In this document: one piece after another, positions 6,997-51,818 of the stretch
How the letters are laid out: every line of letters starts with the position of its first letter
Position numbering within the stretch: the stretch's first letter is position 1
Origin: an uncultured Actinomycetes bacterium
GTDB lineage: Bacteria > Actinomycetota > Thermoleophilia > Gaiellales > JAICJC01
Length of the DNA: 64,000 nucleotides
Direction: 5' to 3'
Assembly (NCBI GenBank): GCA_963809325.1
Contig: CAWEIZ010000007.1
Span: 836,851 to 900,850, forward strand
Notes under the pieces: generated by a model
What the model was told of the DNA's origin: nothing
Databases searched by the model: none
The model's input: only the letters and a program-made list of their open reading frames with translations
Translations under genes and position numbers: made by a program

Positions 6997-7096
6997 GTCG
7001 CCACCTCCTCTCGAGCGCGGCCTGCCTCGGACCGCGGGGCGACCACTCTACGCCACCGCGAGCCGGTTGATCAGGGGACGTACCGAGATTGTGCGG

Positions 7097-20008: not shown

Positions 20009-21238
20009 TCACCGCTCCAACCGCAATTTGGCGGCCAGGCCGGCGGCGCCGTCGCCGGGGACGATTTGGATACGGCGGAGCGTGAAGGGCTCGGTGACGC
20101 GGGCGTAGCCGGGGATGGTTGTGGACGCCAGCTGGTAGCCGGCCCGGCGGACGGCGCTGATTACGGCGGTGTCGAAGCGGCCGGCTGGGTAGCAGAAGAA
20201 GTTCACGGGGATACGGAATGCGTTCTGCAAGAATCGGCGCGATCCGGCGACCTCTGCCGGGAGAGAGTCGGCGCTGAGCCCGGTCAGGTCTGCGTGGGTC
20301 AGGGTGTGCGAGTCGACCTCCCAGTCTCGAGCGATCATGGTGCGGACGCGGTGTCGCCCGAGCTCGCCGGAGCGGACGTGATGGACGACGAGGTTGAGGA
20401 CGCCGGCCCAGCCATGGTGGGTGAGGATCGGCATGGCGTTGCGGTACTGGGTTCGGTAGCCGTCGTCGAAGCTGACGATGATGGGGCGGCTGGGCAGCGG
20501 ATCGCCGTGCCAGTAGTCGTACGCATCCTGCAGGCTGATGACGTGGTAGCCGTGTGTGGCCAGGTAGCGCATCTGCGCTGCGAATTCCCGTCGTGGCACC
20601 CAGAGCTGCGGGAAGGCGGCGCCGGGTGGCGCTACCGCGACGGCGTGGTACAGCAGCATCGGAACCGGGGCGGTGTGGGACGCCACCAGTGGGTGCGCGC
20701 AGCCCACACGGTGATCCTCGGCGTCCGCGATGCAGAGGTCGATGCCGGAGCCGCCGTCCAAACGGTCAAACGGTCGGCCGTCGCGGGCCTTCAGCGTATC
20801 CCGGCCGGTGCCGCCACTGAGGCTGTCTTGCTGACCAGGGCCTGCGACGAGCACGTCGCCGCCCTGGTTGCCGCGAAGAACGTCGTTGCCGGCGCCGCCG
20901 CGCAAGACGTCACGACCTCCACCCCCGAATACGGTGTCCGGCCCACCTCCGGCGCAAATCACATCACGCCCCGGCGTTCCAATCAGCGTGTCCTGCCCGG
21001 GCGTTCCGAAGATCGTGCACGCGGATCGCGCCGCGGCGGCATCGGACGCCCCGAACCACGCACACGGCCACCCGGAAATGGTCGCCAAACCCACGCCGGT
21101 CCATGGTGCTCCCAGACTGAGACATGTCGTTCGCGCGGCGACAGCATCAGACGCCCCGAACCAGGCGCACGGACACCCGGTCAGCCCAATCGCCAGGCCA
21201 ACAGCGATCCCCACTAGCCAGCGGCGGCACCCACACAT
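20009..21238 (-). CDS. lipoprotein with Gly/Asp-rich RTX-like repeats and a polysaccharide deacetylase (NodB) domain
   Basis: Lipobox LTGC after MCGCRRWLVGIAVGLAIG. Repeats GGGPDTVFGGGGRDVLRGGAGNDVLRGNQGGDVL. NodB block IIVSFDDGYRTQY...HTLTH. Confidence 0.75.
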   Translation of the reverse strand: MCGCRRWLVGIAVGLAIGLTGCPCAWFGASDAVAARTTCLSLGAPWTGVGLATISGWPCAWFGASDAAAARSACTIFGTPGQDTLIGTPGRDVICAGGGPDTVFGGGGRDVLRGGAGNDVLRGNQGGDVLVAGPGQQDSLSGGTGRDTLKARDGRPFDRLDGGSGIDLCIADAEDHRVGCAHPLVASHTAPVPMLLYHAVAVAPPGAAFPQLWVPRREFAAQMRYLATHGYHVISLQDAYDYWHGDPLPSRPIIVSFDDGYRTQYRNAMPILTHHGWAGVLNLVVHHVRSGELGRHRVRTMIARDWEVDSHTLTHADLTGLSADSLPAEVAGSRRFLQNAFRIPVNFFCYPAGRFDTAVISAVRRAGYQLASTTIPGYARVTEPFTLRRIQIVPGDGAAGLAAKLRLER

Positions 21239-25836: not shown

Positions 25837-26826
25837 TCAGCAGACGCACACCACACCGTCCACGCCGGGCACGCGATCCGACGCCACGAGGGCGATCACG
25901 CAGCCGCCGAACCCGCCGCCCGTGAGGCGGGCGCCGTACGCGCCGAGGCCGAGAAGCCGGTCGACCAGGGCGTCGAGCTCCGGCGTCGAGACCGCGAAGT
26001 CGTCGCGCAGGCTGCGGTGGCCCTCGGTGAGGATCGCGCCCGCATCCTCGAGGTCGCCCGCGCGGAGGGCGCGCACCATGCGATGCACCCGCTCGTTCTC
26101 GGAGACGACGTGCCTCGCGACCGGGTCGTCGGCGACCTGCTCGGGCGTCGCATAGCGAAGCGACGGCACGCCGACGCGCTCGGCCGCGGCGTCACAGGCT
26201 GCGCGCCGCTCGGCGTAGCGACCGTCCGACAGCGACCGGCGAACCCCGGAGTCGACGACGACGATCGCCGCGTCGTCGGGAAGCGCGACCCGCTCGACGA
26301 CAGCGTCGCGGCAGTCCACGAGAAGCGGCTCACGCGGGCGCCCGAGCGCCGCGACCATCTGATCCATGAACCCGCACGGCACACCGGTCGCCCGCTCCTC
26401 GGCCCGCCGGCAGGCCTCCGCGAGCACCGCCGGCTCGAGGGCGAGGCCGGCGACGCGGCAGAGGGCGATGCCGAGCGCGATCGAGAGCGCGCCGCTCGAT
26501 GCCAGGCCGGCGCCCATCGGGACGCTCGTGGCAACGGCGGCGTCCACACCCACGGCCTCGCGCCCCTCCTCCGCCAGGGCCTCGAGCAGCGCGTCGGTCC
26601 ACGGCTCGATGTCGTCAGGCGCGTCGAGCGAGACGACGTTGACCGCGCCGTCAGCGCGCGGCCGGTACCCCACCAGGCAGTCGAGCTCGAGCGCCATCGG
26701 CAGCACCCAGCCGCCGTTGTAGTCGGTGTGCTCGCCGATCAGGTTGACGCGCCCGGGCGCGCGCACGAACGCCACGTCGTCGCCCGTTCCCAGGGCGGCG
26801 GCAACGGCGTCGGCGCGGCGTTCCAC
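25837..26826 (-). CDS. galK: galactokinase-like GHMP kinase
   Basis: GRVNLIGEHTDYNGG galactokinase signature and PMGAGLASSGAL GHMP motif. At 329 aa it is shorter than typical GalK. Confidence 0.8.
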   Translation of the reverse strand: MERRADAVAAALGTGDDVAFVRAPGRVNLIGEHTDYNGGWVLPMALELDCLVGYRPRADGAVNVVSLDAPDDIEPWTDALLEALAEEGREAVGVDAAVATSVPMGAGLASSGALSIALGIALCRVAGLALEPAVLAEACRRAEERATGVPCGFMDQMVAALGRPREPLLVDCRDAVVERVALPDDAAIVVVDSGVRRSLSDGRYAERRAACDAAAERVGVPSLRYATPEQVADDPVARHVVSENERVHRMVRALRAGDLEDAGAILTEGHRSLRDDFAVSTPELDALVDRLLGLGAYGARLTGGGFGGCVIALVASDRVPGVDGVVCVC

Positions 26827-26851
26827 CGCGCGAGCCTACTTGGCTGATCTA

Positions 26852-27104
26852 GATGATTGATCGATAACTTCCGCGCGCCTGGACGCCCGACGCGCTGGAA
26901 CGGCCGAATCGCGGCGGCGCTGCGGCTGCGAACCTTCGCATCGCGGCGTCCTCGGTCGGGCCAATATTCCCGATATTGGCCCTCCCTGCGTCCTTGCGCT
27001 ACTCGGTTCTCGCCCGTTCGCGGCCTGCTGGATAGCAGGCCGCTCACGATCGCCACAAGCCAAGGCTTGCGGCTGGGACATCACGGAGCTATCGATCAAT
27101 CATC
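26852..27104. repeat. structured MITE-like repeat, copy A (253 bp)
   Basis: TIRs GATGATTGATCGATA / TATCGATCAATCATC, flanked by TA (26850-51, 27105-06). Shares two near-identical core blocks with copies B and C. Internal hairpins at 26958-26982 and 27020-27043. Confidence 0.85.
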
Positions 27105-27511
27105 TAACGCTTGGCGAGGTGCGCGCCGACCCGCACGCGCAGCTCCTGCGGCGAGAACGGCTTCGTCAGGTAGTCGTCGGCGCCGAGCGAGAAGCCGGCA
27201 TCGACGTCGCGGTCCTGCGCGCGGGCGGTCAGCATGATGACCTTCATGTCACGATGCGACTCGTCCTCGCGCAGCGCCTTCAGCACCTCGAAGCCCGAGC
27301 GCTTGGGCATCATCACGTCGAGCACGCACAGATCCGGATGCTCGGTGCGGGCGAGCTCGAGGGCCGCCTCACCGTCGGTCGCGGTGATCACGTTGTACCC
27401 CTCGCGCTCCAGCCGGAACTTCACGAGGCGGAGCAGATGCGGCTCGTCGTCGGCGACGAGCACCGTGGCGGACTCGGTCTCGGTCATGGTCGACTCCTCT
27501 CGGGTTTGCAC
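27104..27511 (-). CDS. single-domain response regulator (CheY-like receiver)
   Basis: VLVADDEP...DLCVLDVMMP...IMLTA...LTKPF receiver motifs with no output domain. Confidence 0.85.
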   Translation of the reverse strand: MQTREESTMTETESATVLVADDEPHLLRLVKFRLEREGYNVITATDGEAALELARTEHPDLCVLDVMMPKRSGFEVLKALREDESHRDMKVIMLTARAQDRDVDAGFSLGADDYLTKPFSPQELRVRVGAHLAKR

Positions 27512-34052: not shown

Positions 34053-35303
34053 TCACCACGCCTCGGCGACGGTCACGTGGTTCTTGCCGTCGCGCTTGGC
34101 CTGGTAGAGCGCGGCGTCCGCGGAGGCGATGAGGTCGATCTGGGTCATCGAGTCCTCGGGGCCCGCCGCGACGCCGAAGCTGGCAGTGATGCCCTCGATC
34201 TCGTCGGCGCCGAACCGGATCGGCCGTGTTGCGATCTCGCGGCGGAGGCGTTCGGCGAGCTGAGCCGCGCCGTCCTGCGCCGTCTGCGGCAGGAGGATCG
34301 CGAACTCCTCGCCGCCGTACCGCGCGGCCAGGTCGATCTCGCGGATCAGCTCAGCGAGCGTGGTGGCCACGCCGTGCAGCACCGCGTCGCCCGCCAGGTG
34401 GCCGCGAGTGTCGTTGATCTGCTTGAAATCGTCGATGTCGAGGAGGATCAGCGAGAGCGGCGTCCCGAACCGCTGAGAGCGCTCGTACTCCCGCCCCAGC
34501 ACCTCGTAGAACTGGCGCCGGTTGGCGAGGCCGGTCAGCGCGTCGGTGACCGCCTGGCGCTCGACGACGCGGTGCAGCCGCGCGTTCTCGATCGCGACGC
34601 CGGCCTGTACGGCGAGCGCCGAGAGCGACTCGATGTCGTCGTCGCCGAAGCCGCCGTCCTCGGGATCGACGGTGGTGACGAGGCCGAGCAGCTGGTGCTC
34701 GCGCAGGATCGGGACTGCGAGCATCGCGCGGGGAGCCTGGACGACGCGCGGCTCGTGCGCCGAGAGCGCCTCCCCCTCGAGGCCGATCCCGGCGGCAACG
34801 ACCATGGGCAGGTCGGTGCGCGATCCGCGGGCTGTGCCGATGCGGGCCTGCTCGATCGCCTCTCCACGCTCGGGGTCGTACAGCAGGAGGCGGCCGCCGC
34901 GGGCCCGGGTCGCCTGCACCGCCGTGTCGAGGACGGCACCGACGAGCGCATTCAGGTCGTGCGTCGCCGCCAGCGTCTCGCCGTAGCGCTGGAGGGTCTC
35001 CTTGAACCGGCCGCGCTCGGCCTCGAGCTCGCCGACCCGCGAGGAGAGCTCGCCCGAGATCTGGTCGATGGCGGCGCCGAGCTGGTCGAGCTCGTCGCCA
35101 CGGGTGCCGCCCCGGGCCAGCACCATGGCGCGCTCGGCCAGGTCGTTCAGCGCCCTCGACATCCAGTCGGCGGCGGCGAACGCCAGGACGCCGACGATGA
35201 GCGCGACCAGGATCAGCGGCACCAGGATGCGCAGCCGCTGGGAGTCGATCGCGTTATCGAGGGCGGAGCGCGGATACATCGCGACGAGCGAGCAGGACTT
35301 CAT
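34053..35303 (-). CDS. diguanylate cyclase (TM-HAMP-GAF-like-GGDEF)
   Basis: GGEEF active site with I-site REID five residues upstream. DALTGLANRR. TM helix LVPLILVALIVGVLAFAAADW near the N-terminus. Confidence 0.85.
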   Translation of the reverse strand: MKSCSLVAMYPRSALDNAIDSQRLRILVPLILVALIVGVLAFAAADWMSRALNDLAERAMVLARGGTRGDELDQLGAAIDQISGELSSRVGELEAERGRFKETLQRYGETLAATHDLNALVGAVLDTAVQATRARGGRLLLYDPERGEAIEQARIGTARGSRTDLPMVVAAGIGLEGEALSAHEPRVVQAPRAMLAVPILREHQLLGLVTTVDPEDGGFGDDDIESLSALAVQAGVAIENARLHRVVERQAVTDALTGLANRRQFYEVLGREYERSQRFGTPLSLILLDIDDFKQINDTRGHLAGDAVLHGVATTLAELIREIDLAARYGGEEFAILLPQTAQDGAAQLAERLRREIATRPIRFGADEIEGITASFGVAAGPEDSMTQIDLIASADAALYQAKRDGKNHVTVAEAW

Positions 35304-35935
35304 CGCTGCAGGGGATGCTCACGGCCAGGGCGCGCATCGAGACGCCCGGGATCGTCGCGTCGCTCGCCTCGCCGACGCCGATGCCCCTGGACCGGCCCGA
35401 CCACCGAACCGGTCGATGCGACCAGACGCCCGTCGGCGACGAGGCCGATGTCTCGGAAGCTGACCGGGTCAGACCGTCTGTCGAGCCGCTGGCCCAGCAG
35501 GTCGGCGCTGAAGGGAACGGCCGACGACCACCCGGCACCCGCTGCAATTGTCGATCTGCCACATTGCCTTCGAGGTACGGCACCGCTGGGGGGCCGCCCA
35601 CCTTGGCCTTGCCGCCTTTCTCGATGATCACCCGCGTGCCTTGGGAGGCGTCCGAGCAGGAAGCTCTGAAGGGTGGCGGCGTCGAGCGCCGGGTGCGCAG
35701 AGCGGGCGGCGGTCTGCACCTCGAGGCGGGCGGCGATGGTCGCCGCAGCGGTCTGAGCCTGAGCCACCTGCAAGCGGTACGCCTGACCGCCCGCCGTCAC
35801 GGCAGTCACCAGACCGCTGTCGACATTGGAGACCTTGTCGTGCTCGAGCAGCCGCAGCACGAGGTATCCGGCGGCTACCAGCGGAACCAGCGCCAGGCCG
35901 ATCAGCACGATGGAAAGCTTGTGACGAAACCGCAC
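35300..35935 (-). pseudogene. N-terminal TM plus extracytoplasmic sensor-like region upstream of the GGDEF gene, with apparent multiple frame switches
   Basis: The ORF is open in one frame, but GC3 and residue composition point to another path. It runs frame 1 (MRFRHKLSIVLIGLALVPLV...), frame 2 (ASQGTRVIIEKGGKAKVGGPPAVPYLEGNVA), frame 1 (STIAAGAGWSSAVPFSADLLGQ...VVGPVQG), frame 2 (IGVGEASDATIPGVSMRALAVSIPCS), then the GGDEF frame. Confidence 0.4.
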
Positions 35936-36078
35936 CTATGGCGCTCCCCGGGAAGCCCGTCCGTGGGCGTGTTCGATTCTATCCCGCGATGTGAAAACTG
36001 CCTCCCCCAGACGGGGGATGCCCTGCCAAGCGGAGTTCCACCGCGCCCGCGGCGTTCCTGCCGGCGGGCTGGAGCCTA

Positions 36079-36331
36079 GATCGTTGATTCCCAATTCCCG
36101 CGCGCCTGGACGCAATACTGCCTATGCAGGCCGACGGTGGCGGGGCTGCGGCTGCGAACCGTCGCATCGCGGCGTCCTCGGTCGCGCCGATATTCCCAAT
36201 ATCGGCGCTCCCTGCGTCCTTGCGCTACTCGGTTCTCGCCCATGAGCGACCTGCTGGATAGCAGGTCGCTCATGACCGCGGCAAGCCGTCGGCTTGCCGC
36301 TGGAACATCACGGAATCGGGAATCAACGATC
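36079..36331. repeat. structured MITE-like repeat, copy B (253 bp)
   Basis: TIRs GATCGTTGATTCCCAATTCC / GGAATCGGGAATCAACGATC within CTAG...CTAG. Hairpins at 36184-36208 (11 bp) and 36241-36274 (15 bp perfect). The right TA plus C forms the E1-beta stop codon. Confidence 0.85.
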
Positions 36332-37311
36332 TAGTAGGCGGCGAGCTCGCGCGCCGCCCGGAGGATGTCGTCCTCGGTCGGCAGGTACTCGTGCTCGAGC
36401 ACGGGCGTGAACGGGACCGGCGTGTCGATCGCCGCGACGCGCGTCACGGGCGCGTCGAGGTGCTCGAAGGCCTCCTGCGCGACGATCGCCGCGACCTCCG
36501 CGCCGAACCCGCCGGTGAGGTTGTCCTCGTGCACGATCATCGCCTTGCCCGTCTTCCGGACCGACGCCAGCACCGACTCGCGGTCGAGCGGCACGAGCGT
36601 GCGCAGGTCGATGACCTCGACCGAGGTGCCCTCGGCTGCGAGGGTGTCCGCGACGGCCAGCGACAGCTGCACCGTCGAGGCGTACGTGATGATCGAGATG
36701 TCGGTGCCGGCCCGAGCGACCCGCGCCGAGCCGATCGGCACGATCCGGCCCTCGGCTCCGGTGGGGACGTCGTCCTTCTCCCGCCGGTAGAGGAACTTGT
36801 GCTCGCAGAAGACGACCGGGTTGGGATCCTGGATCGACGCGCGCAGGAGCCCGTATGCGTCGGTCGCGGTGGCCGGGCACACGATCTTCAGGCCGGCGTG
36901 GTGGTGGAACCAGGCCTCGACGTTCTCGGAGTGGTACGGGCCGCCGCCGACCCCCCCGCCGTTGGGGCAGCGCACGACCAGCGGGACCGCCCAGCCGATG
37001 CGGTAGTGCATCTTGGCGGCGCAGGTCACGATCTGGTCGAAGGCGATCGAGACGAAGTCGCCGAACTGCATCTCGGCGACGGGCCGCTGGCCCGCCATCG
37101 CCGCGCCGATCGCGACGCCCGCGATGCCCGCCTCGGCGACCGGCGTGTCGATCGAGCGGAGCTCGCCGTAGGTCTGCTGCAGCCCCTTGGTGGCGCCGAA
37201 CGCCCCGCCCTGGCGGCCGACGTCCTCGCCCATGCAGAACACGCGCGGGTCGGCCTCCATCTCGTCGTGGAGGGCGGCGTTGATCGCCTCGAGGTAGGTG
37301 AGCTCAGGCAT
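36331..37311 (-). CDS. 2-oxoacid (pyruvate/branched-chain/acetoin) dehydrogenase E1 beta subunit
   Basis: MPELTYLEAINAALHDEM..., FGATKGLQ, DTPVAEAGIAG blocks; 326 aa from the ATG at 37311. Confidence 0.9.
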   Translation of the reverse strand: MPELTYLEAINAALHDEMEADPRVFCMGEDVGRQGGAFGATKGLQQTYGELRSIDTPVAEAGIAGVAIGAAMAGQRPVAEMQFGDFVSIAFDQIVTCAAKMHYRIGWAVPLVVRCPNGGGVGGGPYHSENVEAWFHHHAGLKIVCPATATDAYGLLRASIQDPNPVVFCEHKFLYRREKDDVPTGAEGRIVPIGSARVARAGTDISIITYASTVQLSLAVADTLAAEGTSVEVIDLRTLVPLDRESVLASVRKTGKAMIVHEDNLTGGFGAEVAAIVAQEAFEHLDAPVTRVAAIDTPVPFTPVLEHEYLPTEDDILRAARELAAY

Positions 37312-48662: not shown

Positions 48663-50048
48663 GTGGCGCCGGACCCGACGCTCACGCGGTACCGCGCGGC
48701 CGTGGTCGAGGCCGACTCCCACAGCAGGCACGGCCGCGTCACCAACCTCATCGGGCTCGTGATCGAGGTCACGGGCCTGCGCGCCGAGGTCGGCGAGCTC
48801 GTCACGATCTCGGCCGGGCGCAACCGCCCGCCGGTCCCTGCCGAGGTGGTCGGCTTTCGCGAGGGTCGAACGCTTCTCATGCCGCTCGGCGAGATGCACG
48901 GCATCGGCCCCGGCAGGCGCGTCGAGGCCACCGGGAACTCGTTCCGCGTGCGCGTCGGCGACTGCCTCCTGGGCCGCGTCCTCGACGGCCTCGGGCGGCC
49001 GATCGACGGCGGCCCCGAGCTGAGCGCCGATCAGCTTCGCACCGTCGCGGGGAGCCCGCCGTCGCCGATGCACCGCACGCGCATCGTCGAGCGTCTCGAC
49101 CTCGGAGTGCGGGCGCTGGACGCGCTCGTCCCGTGCGGCCGCGGCCAGCGGCTCGGGATCTTCTCGGGCTCGGGCGTCGGGAAGTCGACGCTCCTCGGCT
49201 CGATCGCCCGGTCGACGACCGCGTCGGTGAACGTCATCTGCCTCGTCGGCGAGCGCGGCCGCGAGCTGCTCGAGTTCATCGAGCGTGATCTGGGAAGCGC
49301 GCTCGAGCGCTCGGTCGTGGTCGTCGCGACCTCCGACCAGCCGGCGCTCGTCAGGATCAAGGCCGCGATGGTCGCCACGACCGTCGCCGAGCACTTCCGC
49401 GACGAGGGCCACGACGTGCTGCTCATGATGGACTCGGTCACGCGTCTCGCCATGGCCCAGCGCGAGGTCGGGCTCGCGATCGGCGAGCCGCCCGCGACGC
49501 GCGGCTACACACCGAGCGTCTTCGCCATGCTGCCCCGTCTCCTCGAGCGCGCCGGGACGGCCGAGCGCGGCTCGATCACGGGCCTCTACACCGTGCTCGT
49601 CGAGGGTGACGACATGTCCGAGCCCGTCGCCGACGCCGTCCGGTCGATCCTGGACGGGCACTGCGTCCTCTCGCGTGAGCTCGCCCACAAGAGCCACTAC
49701 CCGGCGATCGACGTCCTCGAGTCGATCTCGCGCCTGGCCACCGAGATCACGACGCCCGAGGTGCTGGTCGCGGCCGCCGGGCTGCGCGAGACGCTCGCCG
49801 CGTACCGCGCCAAGGAGGACCTGATCACGATCGGCGCATACACCGCCGGCGGCGACCCGGCCGTCGACTACGCCATCGCGAAGCTCCCTCACATCAACGC
49901 GTTCCTGCGCCAGCGGGCCGACGAGGCGTCGGCGGCTCGGGACACCGACGCCGCCCTGATCGAGCTCATGGCTGACCGCGGGGAGCCGGGTTCATTCCTC
50001 CCGGTGCGCGCCGATTACCCGGACGTCATCACGATGCCGGAGGCCTGA
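48663..50048 (+). CDS. fliI: flagellum-specific ATPase FliI
   Basis: Walker A GSGVGKST, LLMMDSVTRLAMAQREV, F1/T3SS-ATPase fold blocks. Confidence 0.95.
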   Translation: MAPDPTLTRYRAAVVEADSHSRHGRVTNLIGLVIEVTGLRAEVGELVTISAGRNRPPVPAEVVGFREGRTLLMPLGEMHGIGPGRRVEATGNSFRVRVGDCLLGRVLDGLGRPIDGGPELSADQLRTVAGSPPSPMHRTRIVERLDLGVRALDALVPCGRGQRLGIFSGSGVGKSTLLGSIARSTTASVNVICLVGERGRELLEFIERDLGSALERSVVVVATSDQPALVRIKAAMVATTVAEHFRDEGHDVLLMMDSVTRLAMAQREVGLAIGEPPATRGYTPSVFAMLPRLLERAGTAERGSITGLYTVLVEGDDMSEPVADAVRSILDGHCVLSRELAHKSHYPAIDVLESISRLATEITTPEVLVAAAGLRETLAAYRAKEDLITIGAYTAGGDPAVDYAIAKLPHINAFLRQRADEASAARDTDAALIELMADRGEPGSFLPVRADYPDVITMPEA

Positions 50049-50482
50049 TGTCCACCGCCGAGACCACTCGCCAGCTTGTCATCTTCTCGCTCGGAAGCGA
50101 GGAGTACGCCCTTCCGATCACGCGCGTCCAGGAGATCATCCGCTACACGGAACCACGGATGGTCGCCTCGCGGACAGCGTGGATCCGCGGTGTCATCAAC
50201 CTCCGAGGCAAGATCGTGCCCGTGTGCGACCTCGCCGAGCGGCTCGGCCTCTTTCTCGAGCGCTCCGACGTCGCCAAGATCGTCATCGTCGAGACCGAGA
50301 CCGGCACCGCCGGGGTCATCGTGGACGACGTCGAGGAGGTCCTGACCGTCGACGACGCCCAGCTCGAGGACGTCCCGACCGCCGACACGGCATACGTGGA
50401 CGCGATCGCCAAGCTCGACGACAGGCTCGCCATCCTGCTCAATCCGGACGGGCTCCTCGCCGGTCTGGATATCGCAGCCTAG
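50048..50482 (+). CDS. cheW: chemotaxis coupling protein CheW
   Basis: LVIFSLGSEEYALPITRVQEIIR...IRGVINLRGKIVPVCDL. ATG overlaps the fliI stop. Confidence 0.9.
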   Translation: MSTAETTRQLVIFSLGSEEYALPITRVQEIIRYTEPRMVASRTAWIRGVINLRGKIVPVCDLAERLGLFLERSDVAKIVIVETETGTAGVIVDDVEEVLTVDDAQLEDVPTADTAYVDAIAKLDDRLAILLNPDGLLAGLDIAA

Positions 50483-50681
50483 ATGGTTGACCGATAACTC
50501 CCGCGCGCCTGGACGTCCGGCGCGCTGGAACGGCGAACAGTGGAGGGCTGCGGCTGCGAACCGTCGCATCGCGGCGTCCTCGGTCGCGTCGATATTTCAA
50601 CCAATATCGACGCTCCCTGCGTCCTAGCGCTACTCGGTTCGCAACCGCCCCGGACATCACGGCAGTCATCGATCAACCATC
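50482..50681. repeat. structured MITE-like repeat, copy C (200 bp, lacks one hairpin module)
   Basis: TIRs GATGGTTGACCGAT / ATCGATCAACCATC. The left TA plus G is the cheW TAG stop. Central hairpin at 50586-50613. Core blocks are 39/40 and 27/28 identical to A and B. Confidence 0.85.
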
Positions 50682-50759: not shown

Positions 50760-51818
50760 ATGCAGACCCGCCAGACCCCCTCACCGTCCCGTGTCCGTGT
50801 CGTCGTCGCCGACGACTCGGCCTTCATGCGACATGTGATCGCAGACGGCCTCGCGGAGCGGGGAGCGGAGGTCGTGGGGGTCGCCTCCAACGGCGACGAG
50901 GCGCTCGCCGAGTGCGCGAAGCAGCGGCCTGACGTGCTGTCGCTTGACCTGGCGATGCCCGGCCTGGACGGCATCGGCGTGCTCAAGGAGCTCCGCGCCC
51001 GTAACTCGGACGTCGCGGTGGTCGTCGTCTCGGCCTTCTCGCCGGCGCACGGCGCGCGCGCCGTCGACGCCCTCGCCGAGGGCGCGGTCGAGCTCGTCGC
51101 CAAGCCGGCGGCCGGAGTCCTCCCCGACGCGTTCTTCGCCGAGCTCTACGACAAGACTCACATGGCCGCTGCGTCGCGTCGCAGGGCCGTCGCACCGCGG
51201 CGCCAGCCGGCCGCCCCGCCGGCCCCGGCGCCCCACCGCGCGCCCGGCAGCGTCGCCGGCATGCGGGCGCTGGTCATCGCGTGCTCGACCGGCGGGCCCA
51301 AGGCGCTGGCCGCACTCGTCCCGACGCTGCCGGCCGACCTCGGCTGCGGGATCGTGATCGTCCAGCACATGCCGGCAGGTTTCACCGGATCCCTCGCCGA
51401 GCGGCTCGACCGGGCCTCCAGGCTCACGGTGCGCGAGGCCCGCTCGGGCGACAAGATCACACCCGGGGTTGCGCTCCTCGCCCCCGGCGGCCACCACCTG
51501 CGCGTCTCCGGCGACGGGACGGTGCGCCTCACCGAGGAGCCCGAGATCGGCGGCCTCCGGCCGCGCGCAGACGTGACGATCCGCGACGCCGCCGCCGTCT
51601 ACCGGAACCGGCTGCTCCTGACCGTGCTCACCGGGATGGGGAAGGACGGCCTCGAGGGCGCGCGCGACGTGAAGCGCCTCGGCGGCCGCATCCTGGTCGA
51701 GGACGAGTCGACCTGCACCGTCTACGGCATGCCGCGCTCCATCTCGGAGGCGCACCTGGCCGACGTCGAGCTCCCGCTCGAAGCCCTGACCGCCGCGATC
51801 ATCGAGGAGGCGGCATGA
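50760..51818 (+). CDS. cheB: chemotaxis response regulator protein-glutamate methylesterase CheB
   Basis: Receiver (VVVADDSAFMR...DVLSLDLAMPGLDG) plus methylesterase (ACSTGGPKAL, IVQHMPAGFT, GMGKDG). Confidence 0.92.
   Translation: MQTRQTPSPSRVRVVVADDSAFMRHVIADGLAERGAEVVGVASNGDEALAECAKQRPDVLSLDLAMPGLDGIGVLKELRARNSDVAVVVVSAFSPAHGARAVDALAEGAVELVAKPAAGVLPDAFFAELYDKTHMAAASRRRAVAPRRQPAAPPAPAPHRAPGSVAGMRALVIACSTGGPKALAALVPTLPADLGCGIVIVQHMPAGFTGSLAERLDRASRLTVREARSGDKITPGVALLAPGGHHLRVSGDGTVRLTEEPEIGGLRPRADVTIRDAAAVYRNRLLLTVLTGMGKDGLEGARDVKRLGGRILVEDESTCTVYGMPRSISEAHLADVELPLEALTAAIIEEAA

Follow-up and report, generated by a model that had tools for sequence, protein, structure and literature searches.

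Correia/NEMIS repeats of Neisseria and ERIC/IRU repeats of enterobacteria are small, non-coding, TA-ended sequences that lie between genes and near them; in transcripts their ends pair to give a single long stem-loop, and they have no known transposase (PMC2229807). RUP of Streptococcus pneumoniae uses a TA target, measures 100-250 bp, is present in many intergenic copies and is mobilised by IS630-Spn1 (PMC2229807). In REP and REPIN repeats the terminal TAG (GTAG REPs) is in many cases the source of the adjacent gene's stop codon (PMC3733652). The stretch of DNA analysed here (64 kb, 71% G+C; the window) contains three copies of a repeat that was compared with these systems. The repeat is a previously undescribed family among bacterial MITE/REPIN-like repeats and is widespread in soil Thermoleophilia. 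Members of the Thermoleophilia, which are abundant in soil, are seldom cultured, and we know of no repeat families described for them. A literature search found no description of these sequences or of such repeats in Thermoleophilia.

Copy A (26852..27104, 253 bp) lies between a galactokinase gene (25837-26826) and a response-regulator gene (27104-27511; Pfam), both on the minus strand, and has TA on both sides (26850-26851 and 27105-27106). Its left terminal arm (26852..26872) pairs with its right terminal arm (27084..27104). The conserved core (26917..27018) comprises helices P1' and P2, an invariant middle (AAGGACGCAGGGAG / CGACCGAGGACGCC) and a variable hairpin, P3. It is followed by an optional two-hairpin module (27017..27075, hairpins at 27020-27043 and 27052-27073) that is absent from copy C. 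The TAG stop of the response-regulator gene (27104..27106, minus strand) takes its TA from the flank and its G from the last base of copy A. Copy B (36079..36331, 253 bp) has CTAG at each border and lies directly 3' of a transketolase-type E1 beta gene (minus strand, about 37311 to 36331; Pfam), the TAG stop of which is at 36331..36333; its core is at 36143..36245 and its optional module at 36243..36301. Copy C (50482..50681, 200 bp, core 50545..50655) is without the module and is flanked by TA and TG. It is placed between cheW (50048-50482, TAG stop 50480..50482) and cheB (50760-51818), both on the plus strand. The folding strand of all three copies, and of their cores and modules, is the minus strand, which for copy C is antisense to the che operon.

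Reading and alignment of the three copies confirmed the coordinates and the shared orientation given in the preliminary description, and the terminal inverted repeats quoted there were present in A, B and C, with flanks TA/TA, C-TA/TA-G and TA/TG, respectively, as noted earlier. Mean column identity in the three-copy alignment was 81%, and copy C was missing about 55 nt close to one of its ends. The core 22-mer TCGCATCGCGGCGTCCTCGGTC occurred three times in the window, against 0.01 expected. A core profile run on the window with nhmmer returned precisely copies A, B and C and no others; extra family ends at 7048 and 44357 were set aside as chance matches. At each copy the stop codon of the neighbouring gene is made up of the flanking TA and the terminal G of the element.

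A genome collection was scanned with the same exact 22-mer, TCGCATCGCGGCGTCCTCGGTC, and conservation of that segment is partly by construction. All related sequences were MAGs and metagenomes. Further copies, which the preliminary description had proposed to count, were found at a minimum of 108 loci elsewhere. Nearly all of the matches listed came from Thermoleophilia MAGs, labelled Thermoleophilia, Gaiellales, Gaiellaceae, Solirubrobacterales, Thermoleophilaceae or 'uncultured Actinomycetes', the exceptions among them being one contig labelled Kofleriaceae and a few unclassified ones. At least 10 matches were found in the single MAG MFD04944.bin.1.18. Three matches in viral contigs were all attributed to chance, none having the right half of the core. 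About 105 distinct copies were extracted, with a common centre made up of TCGCATCGCGGCGTCCTCGGTC, a variable hairpin and CTCCCTGCGTCCTTGCGCTGCTCGG. Every extracted copy had mutually complementary arms around this centre, giving one long imperfect hairpin. Copies measured 100-323 bp across the family, and their complementary ends (14-21 nt in every copy) covaried and were not conserved. The type found in the window is 197-205 bp long, or 253-265 bp with the extra two-hairpin module, and reads TA[GATGRTTGAT...ATCAAYCATC]TA; conservation of its outer 10 nt (GATGRTTGAT) is fairly good within this main family. A second type of about 165 bp has the ends GTGGTCGCTCC...GGAGCGACCAC between two TA, a type of about 162 bp in ribosomal-protein operons runs from ATG to TGA, and short forms of 105-125 bp have a plain closing stem. 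One copy of 323 bp carried the module on either side of the core. Arm-only derivatives without the core were found at L044 (101 bp) and L137 (62 nt), and at L075 a family copy was split by foreign DNA, a fragment of a tyrosine-recombinase gene.

Flanks of every copy were compared with all collected loci to find pairs of filled and empty sites. The filled site at L101, ...ggactcTA[GATG...CATC]TAggaacg, is matched in a relative, L090, by an empty site with a single TA (...ggactcTAcgaacg). For the site of copy B, 80 metagenomic loci encoding E1 beta relatives were compared. The site was empty in L112, L113, L114 and L167, in which the stop codon runs straight into the downstream flank with a single TAG; their E1 beta proteins were the closest to the window's among the 80 loci (93-96% amino-acid identity). 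More filled/empty pairs were L004/L080 and L080/L100, together with sites in ribosomal-protein operons. The empty sites in close relatives define the ends of the element, and presence/absence polymorphism with precise borders, as in MITEs, was thereby found. At the E1-beta stop codon, L067 has an oppositely oriented copy from another subfamily, and L137 has a 62-nt arm-only remnant of the GTGGGTC type. Taken with the 253-bp copy of the window, these show that the E1-beta stop site was hit at least three times independently. The filled sites at L060, L067 and L137 need additional small changes to be explained. In L065, the site at which the window has copy A holds a member of another subfamily. 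Median within-MAG identity was 81%; in one MAG, a pair of copies located on separate contigs reached 99%.

Pooled flanks of 64-66 long copies gave the logo C-T-A[G...C]T-A-G. With this logo, the copies elsewhere and the empty sites, the proposal that the element is a MITE-like mobile repeat is supported, and its target is TA/CTAG. CTAG was rare in the window, with 20 occurrences against 166 expected from base composition, and borders of the element accounted for 4 of the 20. The rarity of CTAG suffices to account for the location of copies at TAG stops. In 32 of 66 long copies the element provides the stop of a long high-GC3 ORF, and does so equally at either end; the view that the element always abuts a TAG stop held for the three window copies, where the genes are confirmed by Pfam, but not family-wide. 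A G at the start of the element and a C at its end restore TAG at either border, which leaves the host gene with its stop.

At empty sites there is a single TA and at filled sites there tend to be two, but no more than 22 of 64 copies had TA on each side. Pooled flank conservation fell stepwise from G+1 (99%) to A-1 (85%), T-2 (65%) and C-3 (62%), and the difference between A-1 and T-2 was significant (p = 3e-4). Since TA reads the same on both strands and the element has the ends G...C, a filled site TA[G...C]TA is indistinguishable from T[AG...CT]A, that is, from insertion between T and A with no duplication. With a clean 2-bp duplication, T and A should be conserved to the same degree, which the data do not show. 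Duplication of a TA target by the element, as read from such flanks, is thus taken as unproven. Of the earlier proposal of an IS630/Tc1-like TA duplication at CTAG, the targeting of TA/CTAG stood, as seen in the logo and the empty sites, and the attribution to IS630/Tc1 was not established, given the 22 of 64 copies with TA on both sides, the flank gradient and the outcome of the transposase search described below.

The arms and the central hairpin vary among copies yet remain complementary. A consensus fold of 53 copies of about 200 nt gave -72.2 kcal/mol on the window minus strand, with 51 pairs, 26 of them with compensatory changes, and -45.7 kcal/mol on the plus strand, with 42 pairs, 25 of them with compensatory changes. 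Single-sequence folds of copy A gave -141 kcal/mol (plus) and -155 kcal/mol (minus). When the plus strand was read, A·C combinations outnumbered G·T in the central hairpin P3 (70 vs 8) and in the arms (149 vs 26). This excess means that the minus strand has G·U (G·T) wobbles where the plus strand would mispair, and wobbles favoured the window minus strand by about 6:1; covariation and wobble counts were taken over related copies, which are not independent events. The bias was about 5-8:1 in all four host contexts, namely transcription into the folding strand, into the other strand, into both and into neither. Orientation of copies relative to the neighbouring host genes showed no significant bias. 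Since the wobble bias is alike in all host contexts, the constraint is attributed to the lineage of the element and not to host mRNAs in place. Copies in one genome differed by about 19%, and about 90% of their stem cells were still paired, many through double changes; the diversity is thus that of lineages diverging while holding the fold. As in REPINs, the hairpin is maintained by compensatory change and the fold is specific to one strand.

The core is an asymmetric, nearly invariant centre of about 100 nt that is common to families with unrelated ends. For its analysis 65 sequences were aligned on the folding strand, and pairs were counted for a named structure. In this alignment 90.6% of the cells were paired, compared with 79.1% in shuffles and 23-40% with slid partners, and 192 cells showed double changes, compared with 61 in shuffles. 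None of 500 shuffles matched the observed values for pairing and double changes. Covariation was strong in helices P1' and P3. P2 (GCAGCGC/GCGAUGC) varied in few of the 65 rows; in divergent copies found with the profile it changed on both sides (for example GCAGGCC/GGCAUGU) while the middle stayed fixed. Between P2 and P3 sit the almost invariant strands AAGGACGCAGGGAG and CGACCGAGGACGCC. By hypothesis, these could be drawn as a continuous irregular helix of Watson-Crick pairs, tandem G·A/A·G steps and a bulged A. The tandem steps so drawn are two (GGAC opposite GGAC, and GGAG opposite CGACC), with one single G·A in addition, and the juxtaposed purines of the drawing were conserved in 53-65 of the 65 rows; the columns of the core middle are invariant, so that covariation cannot test the G·A drawing. 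As a separate observation, the core strand GGACGC and a conserved arm segment, GCGUCCAGG, change jointly in one subfamily, and a long-range pairing between them was considered. RNAalifold prefers the GCGUCCAGG segment paired with the opposite arm, and each of the two readings rests on a single subfamily event.

The element is probably a non-autonomous, MITE-/REPIN-like mobile element of about 100-323 bp that is widespread in Thermoleophilia, inserts at TA/CTAG and carries a folded core. It inserts at TA, preferably within CTAG, a sequence that is very rare at 71% G+C and found mostly at TAG stops. The propagating lineage may pass through, or act as, a folded single strand, either ssDNA during transposition or an RNA of the element, and the core in that strand may be the recognition site of a protein, which could be a transposase or a host factor. 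Candidate mobilisers would be a TA-specific DDE transposase (IS630/Tc1 type) or an HUH enzyme (RAYT type). Host mRNAs that carry the folding strand, as at copies A and B, would have a very stable 3' hairpin right after the stop codon; at copy C the che operon would instead contain the weaker-folding strand.

No transposase gene is present inside the element, which is too short for one and has no reading frame conserved across copies. A transposase between matching family ends was searched for in 1.19 Mb of related DNA, which consisted of loci and not whole genomes, and none was found; the autonomous element with matching TIRs that the preliminary description envisaged was thus not recovered in this DNA. 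Family ends at an IS-like spacing enclosed no IS in the window or the loci and occurred in two cases only, L075 and L003. At L075 the pair of ends belongs to the family copy disrupted by the tyrosine-recombinase gene fragment and was rejected as an IS. The pair of solo ends at L003 encloses a cupin-type host gene, called from sequence only, and was likewise rejected. A search of the 1.19 Mb for TA-flanked inverted repeats 0.7-2.5 kb apart gave a single pair, at L056, with ends 2,135 bp apart and unrelated to the family. Clustering of the ORFs that neighbour copies gave no recurrent partner gene, and the ORFs adjoining copies A, B and C were ordinary genes or had no Pfam match.

These searches bear first on a classical IS630/Tc1 MITE, in which a DDE transposase acting in trans would bind duplex TIRs and duplicate TA, the hairpin and the core being incidental or left over from a parent IS. 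This account is possible, if somewhat doubtful. A TA target with a preference for CTAG is the signature of IS630, and the TA/CTAG flanks, the single TA at empty sites and the fairly conserved GATGRTTGAT at the outer ends of the main family are all in its favour. A precedent exists in RUP, which is mobilised by IS630-Spn1 (PMC2229807). Against the account, no IS with these ends was found in the 1.19 Mb, and the core is common to families with unrelated ends (GATG..., GTGGTC..., ATG...TGA and the short forms). The ends covary, with the one-strand wobble bias reaching the termini, and the flanks are conserved unequally (A-1 85% vs T-2 65%, p = 3e-4). Covarying ends, an invariant central core and a strand-specific fold are unlike a classical transposase-bound TIR. 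The link of the element to IS630 is accordingly regarded as unproven.

A more far-reaching proposal is put forward tentatively and is judged rather improbable. The element may be a structure-specified mobile hairpin with free arms, the core of which is read by a protein on ssDNA or RNA and which inserts at T^A without duplication; such an element would be of a new kind for Actinomycetota. In another version, the core would be a new structured RNA motif that different MITE backbones picked up and spread repeatedly.

A REPIN-like system, in which a single-copy HUH tyrosine transposase (RAYT/TIRYT) would read the folded strand and cut at a TAG tag with no true duplication, is unlikely. It would account for the strand-specific fold, for the compensatory arms and for the conservation of shape over arm sequence, and the flank gradient would fit an inner A/T that belongs to the element. 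An NTAG tag at the base of the hairpin supplies stop codons, as GTAG REPs do (PMC3733652). Taken by themselves, however, the arms are not palindromes of the 20-40 nt REP kind. The examined loci showed no HUH gene next to copies or between them, and none of 10,579 ORFs was IS200-like, a weak test, since the sequence of the IS608 TnpA query was approximate. Genes flanked by two copies were ordinary host genes (an OmpR-type regulator, a solute-binding protein, a PHP-domain protein and an E2 acyltransferase).

A vertically inherited, immobile structured RNA, encoded by the host as, for example, a 3'-UTR stabiliser, a terminator or a small RNA, is a very improbable reading. The strong structure with its invariant core would suit such an RNA, copies A and B, in the orientation that folds, are located in 3' regions of genes, and short forms occupy conserved places (after greA or clpP, and inside ribosomal-protein operons). 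Presence/absence polymorphism contradicts it, the sites being empty in relatives at 93-96% amino-acid identity, as does the occupation of one site by different subfamilies in opposite orientations. Near-identical copies occur at unrelated loci, and orientation is independent of host transcription. No promoter-like site was found by scans around copies A, B and C, and terminator scans of the same regions gave only a weak 5-bp match inside copy C, on the minus strand. A match to a known RNA family, which would have spoken against a mobile repeat, was not found either. The whole window had no match in Rfam at gathering scores, and a permissive scan of copy A gave nothing meaningful; the best sub-threshold match was isrO, which scored 16 bits where 42 are required. 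The reading as a small gene for a protein, or as a peptide-coding insertion, suggested by the open frame that spans every copy and by the copies in ribosomal-protein operons that run exactly from ATG to TGA (54 codons), was rejected as hardly credible, since open frames are expected at 71% G+C, the frame over the core differs among families, the length steps of P3 are not multiples of three and the stem substitutions are compensatory.

In the mobile hairpin preferred here the usual MITE pattern is reversed, the centre being conserved, the ends covarying and the fold belonging to one strand regardless of host transcription. The element is a test case for whether small bacterial repeats spread as end-bound duplex DNA or as folded single strands, and its invariant core could be used as bait for a putative binding protein. 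Copies at gene ends and in ribosomal-protein and chemotaxis operons could alter the fate of mRNA in an orientation-dependent manner through a hairpin of -140 to -155 kcal/mol. Its copies are so frequent that short-read assemblies break at them.

Of the described systems, RUP has ends that match a resident IS630-family element, whereas the ends of the present element match no IS in 1.19 Mb. Integron attC sites are single-strand elements defined by their structure; they immediately follow a gene's stop codon, and their fold is conserved and their sequence variable. Unlike them, the element is without cassette arrays or an integrase, its conserved part is central and not at the base of the hairpin, and its copies are dispersed in both orientations. 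MIRU of mycobacteria lie inside operons and overlap the flanking stop and start codons with their ends; they are short tandem units with no long hairpin or TA target. The 162-nt ATG...TGA copies in ribosomal-protein operons resemble them. The repeat may also bear some resemblance to the Himar1 inverted repeat (GGTTG...GATAAGTCC). With REP/REPIN the element shares covarying ends, a one-strand wobble bias, families with unrelated ends and a common core, and unequal conservation of the flanks. It differs in that it does not consist of two short REP palindromes and has a larger, non-palindromic conserved core, in that its tag is CTAG/NTAG at both ends and not the GTAG/CGTC of tagged REPs, and in that, unlike in RAYT-REPIN systems, neither the genes that adjoin copies nor those lying between two copies in the loci examined included a visible RAYT gene. 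Like Correia/NEMIS and ERIC/IRU, the element is small, has TA termini, lies near genes and forms one long stem-loop. Unlike these, it is G+C-rich, its arms vary and covary, its asymmetric central core is conserved and common to families with unrelated ends, and its fold is selected on one strand only.

Divergent copies of the almost invariant centre of the element (the core, about 100 nt) were located on soil metagenome contigs at L168:25-131, L171:291-397 and L180:291-397 (L-numbers denote related loci from metagenome-assembled genomes or metagenomes). The E1 beta encoded on these contigs shared only ~58% identity with the window protein, and the core thus ranges beyond the close relatives.

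Family members of ~162 nt were found within ribosomal-protein operons at L004:892-1053, L004:5620-5781 and L080:6197-6358. The junctions holding them were read from the flanking protein sequences and are presumably rplW-rplB, rplN-rplX and rpsJ-rplC. Each of these copies begins with an ATG, placed at the upstream stop codon or overlapping it, and ends with a TGA that overlaps the next start codon, thus giving a frame of 54 codons that runs the same way as the operon. In relatives these sites were empty.

The stretch lying past copy B downstream of E1 beta (window 35930-36075) has a counterpart in relatives that leads to the conserved start of the next gene, (M/V)RFRHKLSIVL..., and this gene corresponds to the window ORF at 35300-35935 on the minus strand. 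The first 211 residues of the ORF had no match in Pfam. Short-read contigs with an identical cheW gene stopped ~90 nt past the cheW stop codon, within copy C (window 50482-50681), and the repeat thus breaks assemblies. Elsewhere in the window, a 50-nt direct repeat (21026-21075 and 21131-21180; 86% identity, copies 105 nt apart) was assigned to repeat family D12, which is unrelated to the mobile hairpin element.

Arm-only derivatives, in which the family ends were kept and the conserved core was lost, were found at L044:1737-1837 and in L137, where the derivative is the 62-nt stretch that follows the stop codon of E1 beta. Another copy (L075:4427-5509) was split by an insert of ~880 bp, which has a lower G+C content and codes for the C-terminal portion of a phage-integrase-type tyrosine recombinase. 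In a 323-bp copy (L085:4307-4629) the optional ~55-nt two-hairpin module was present on both sides of the core, so it acts as a unit that is independent and can be repeated.
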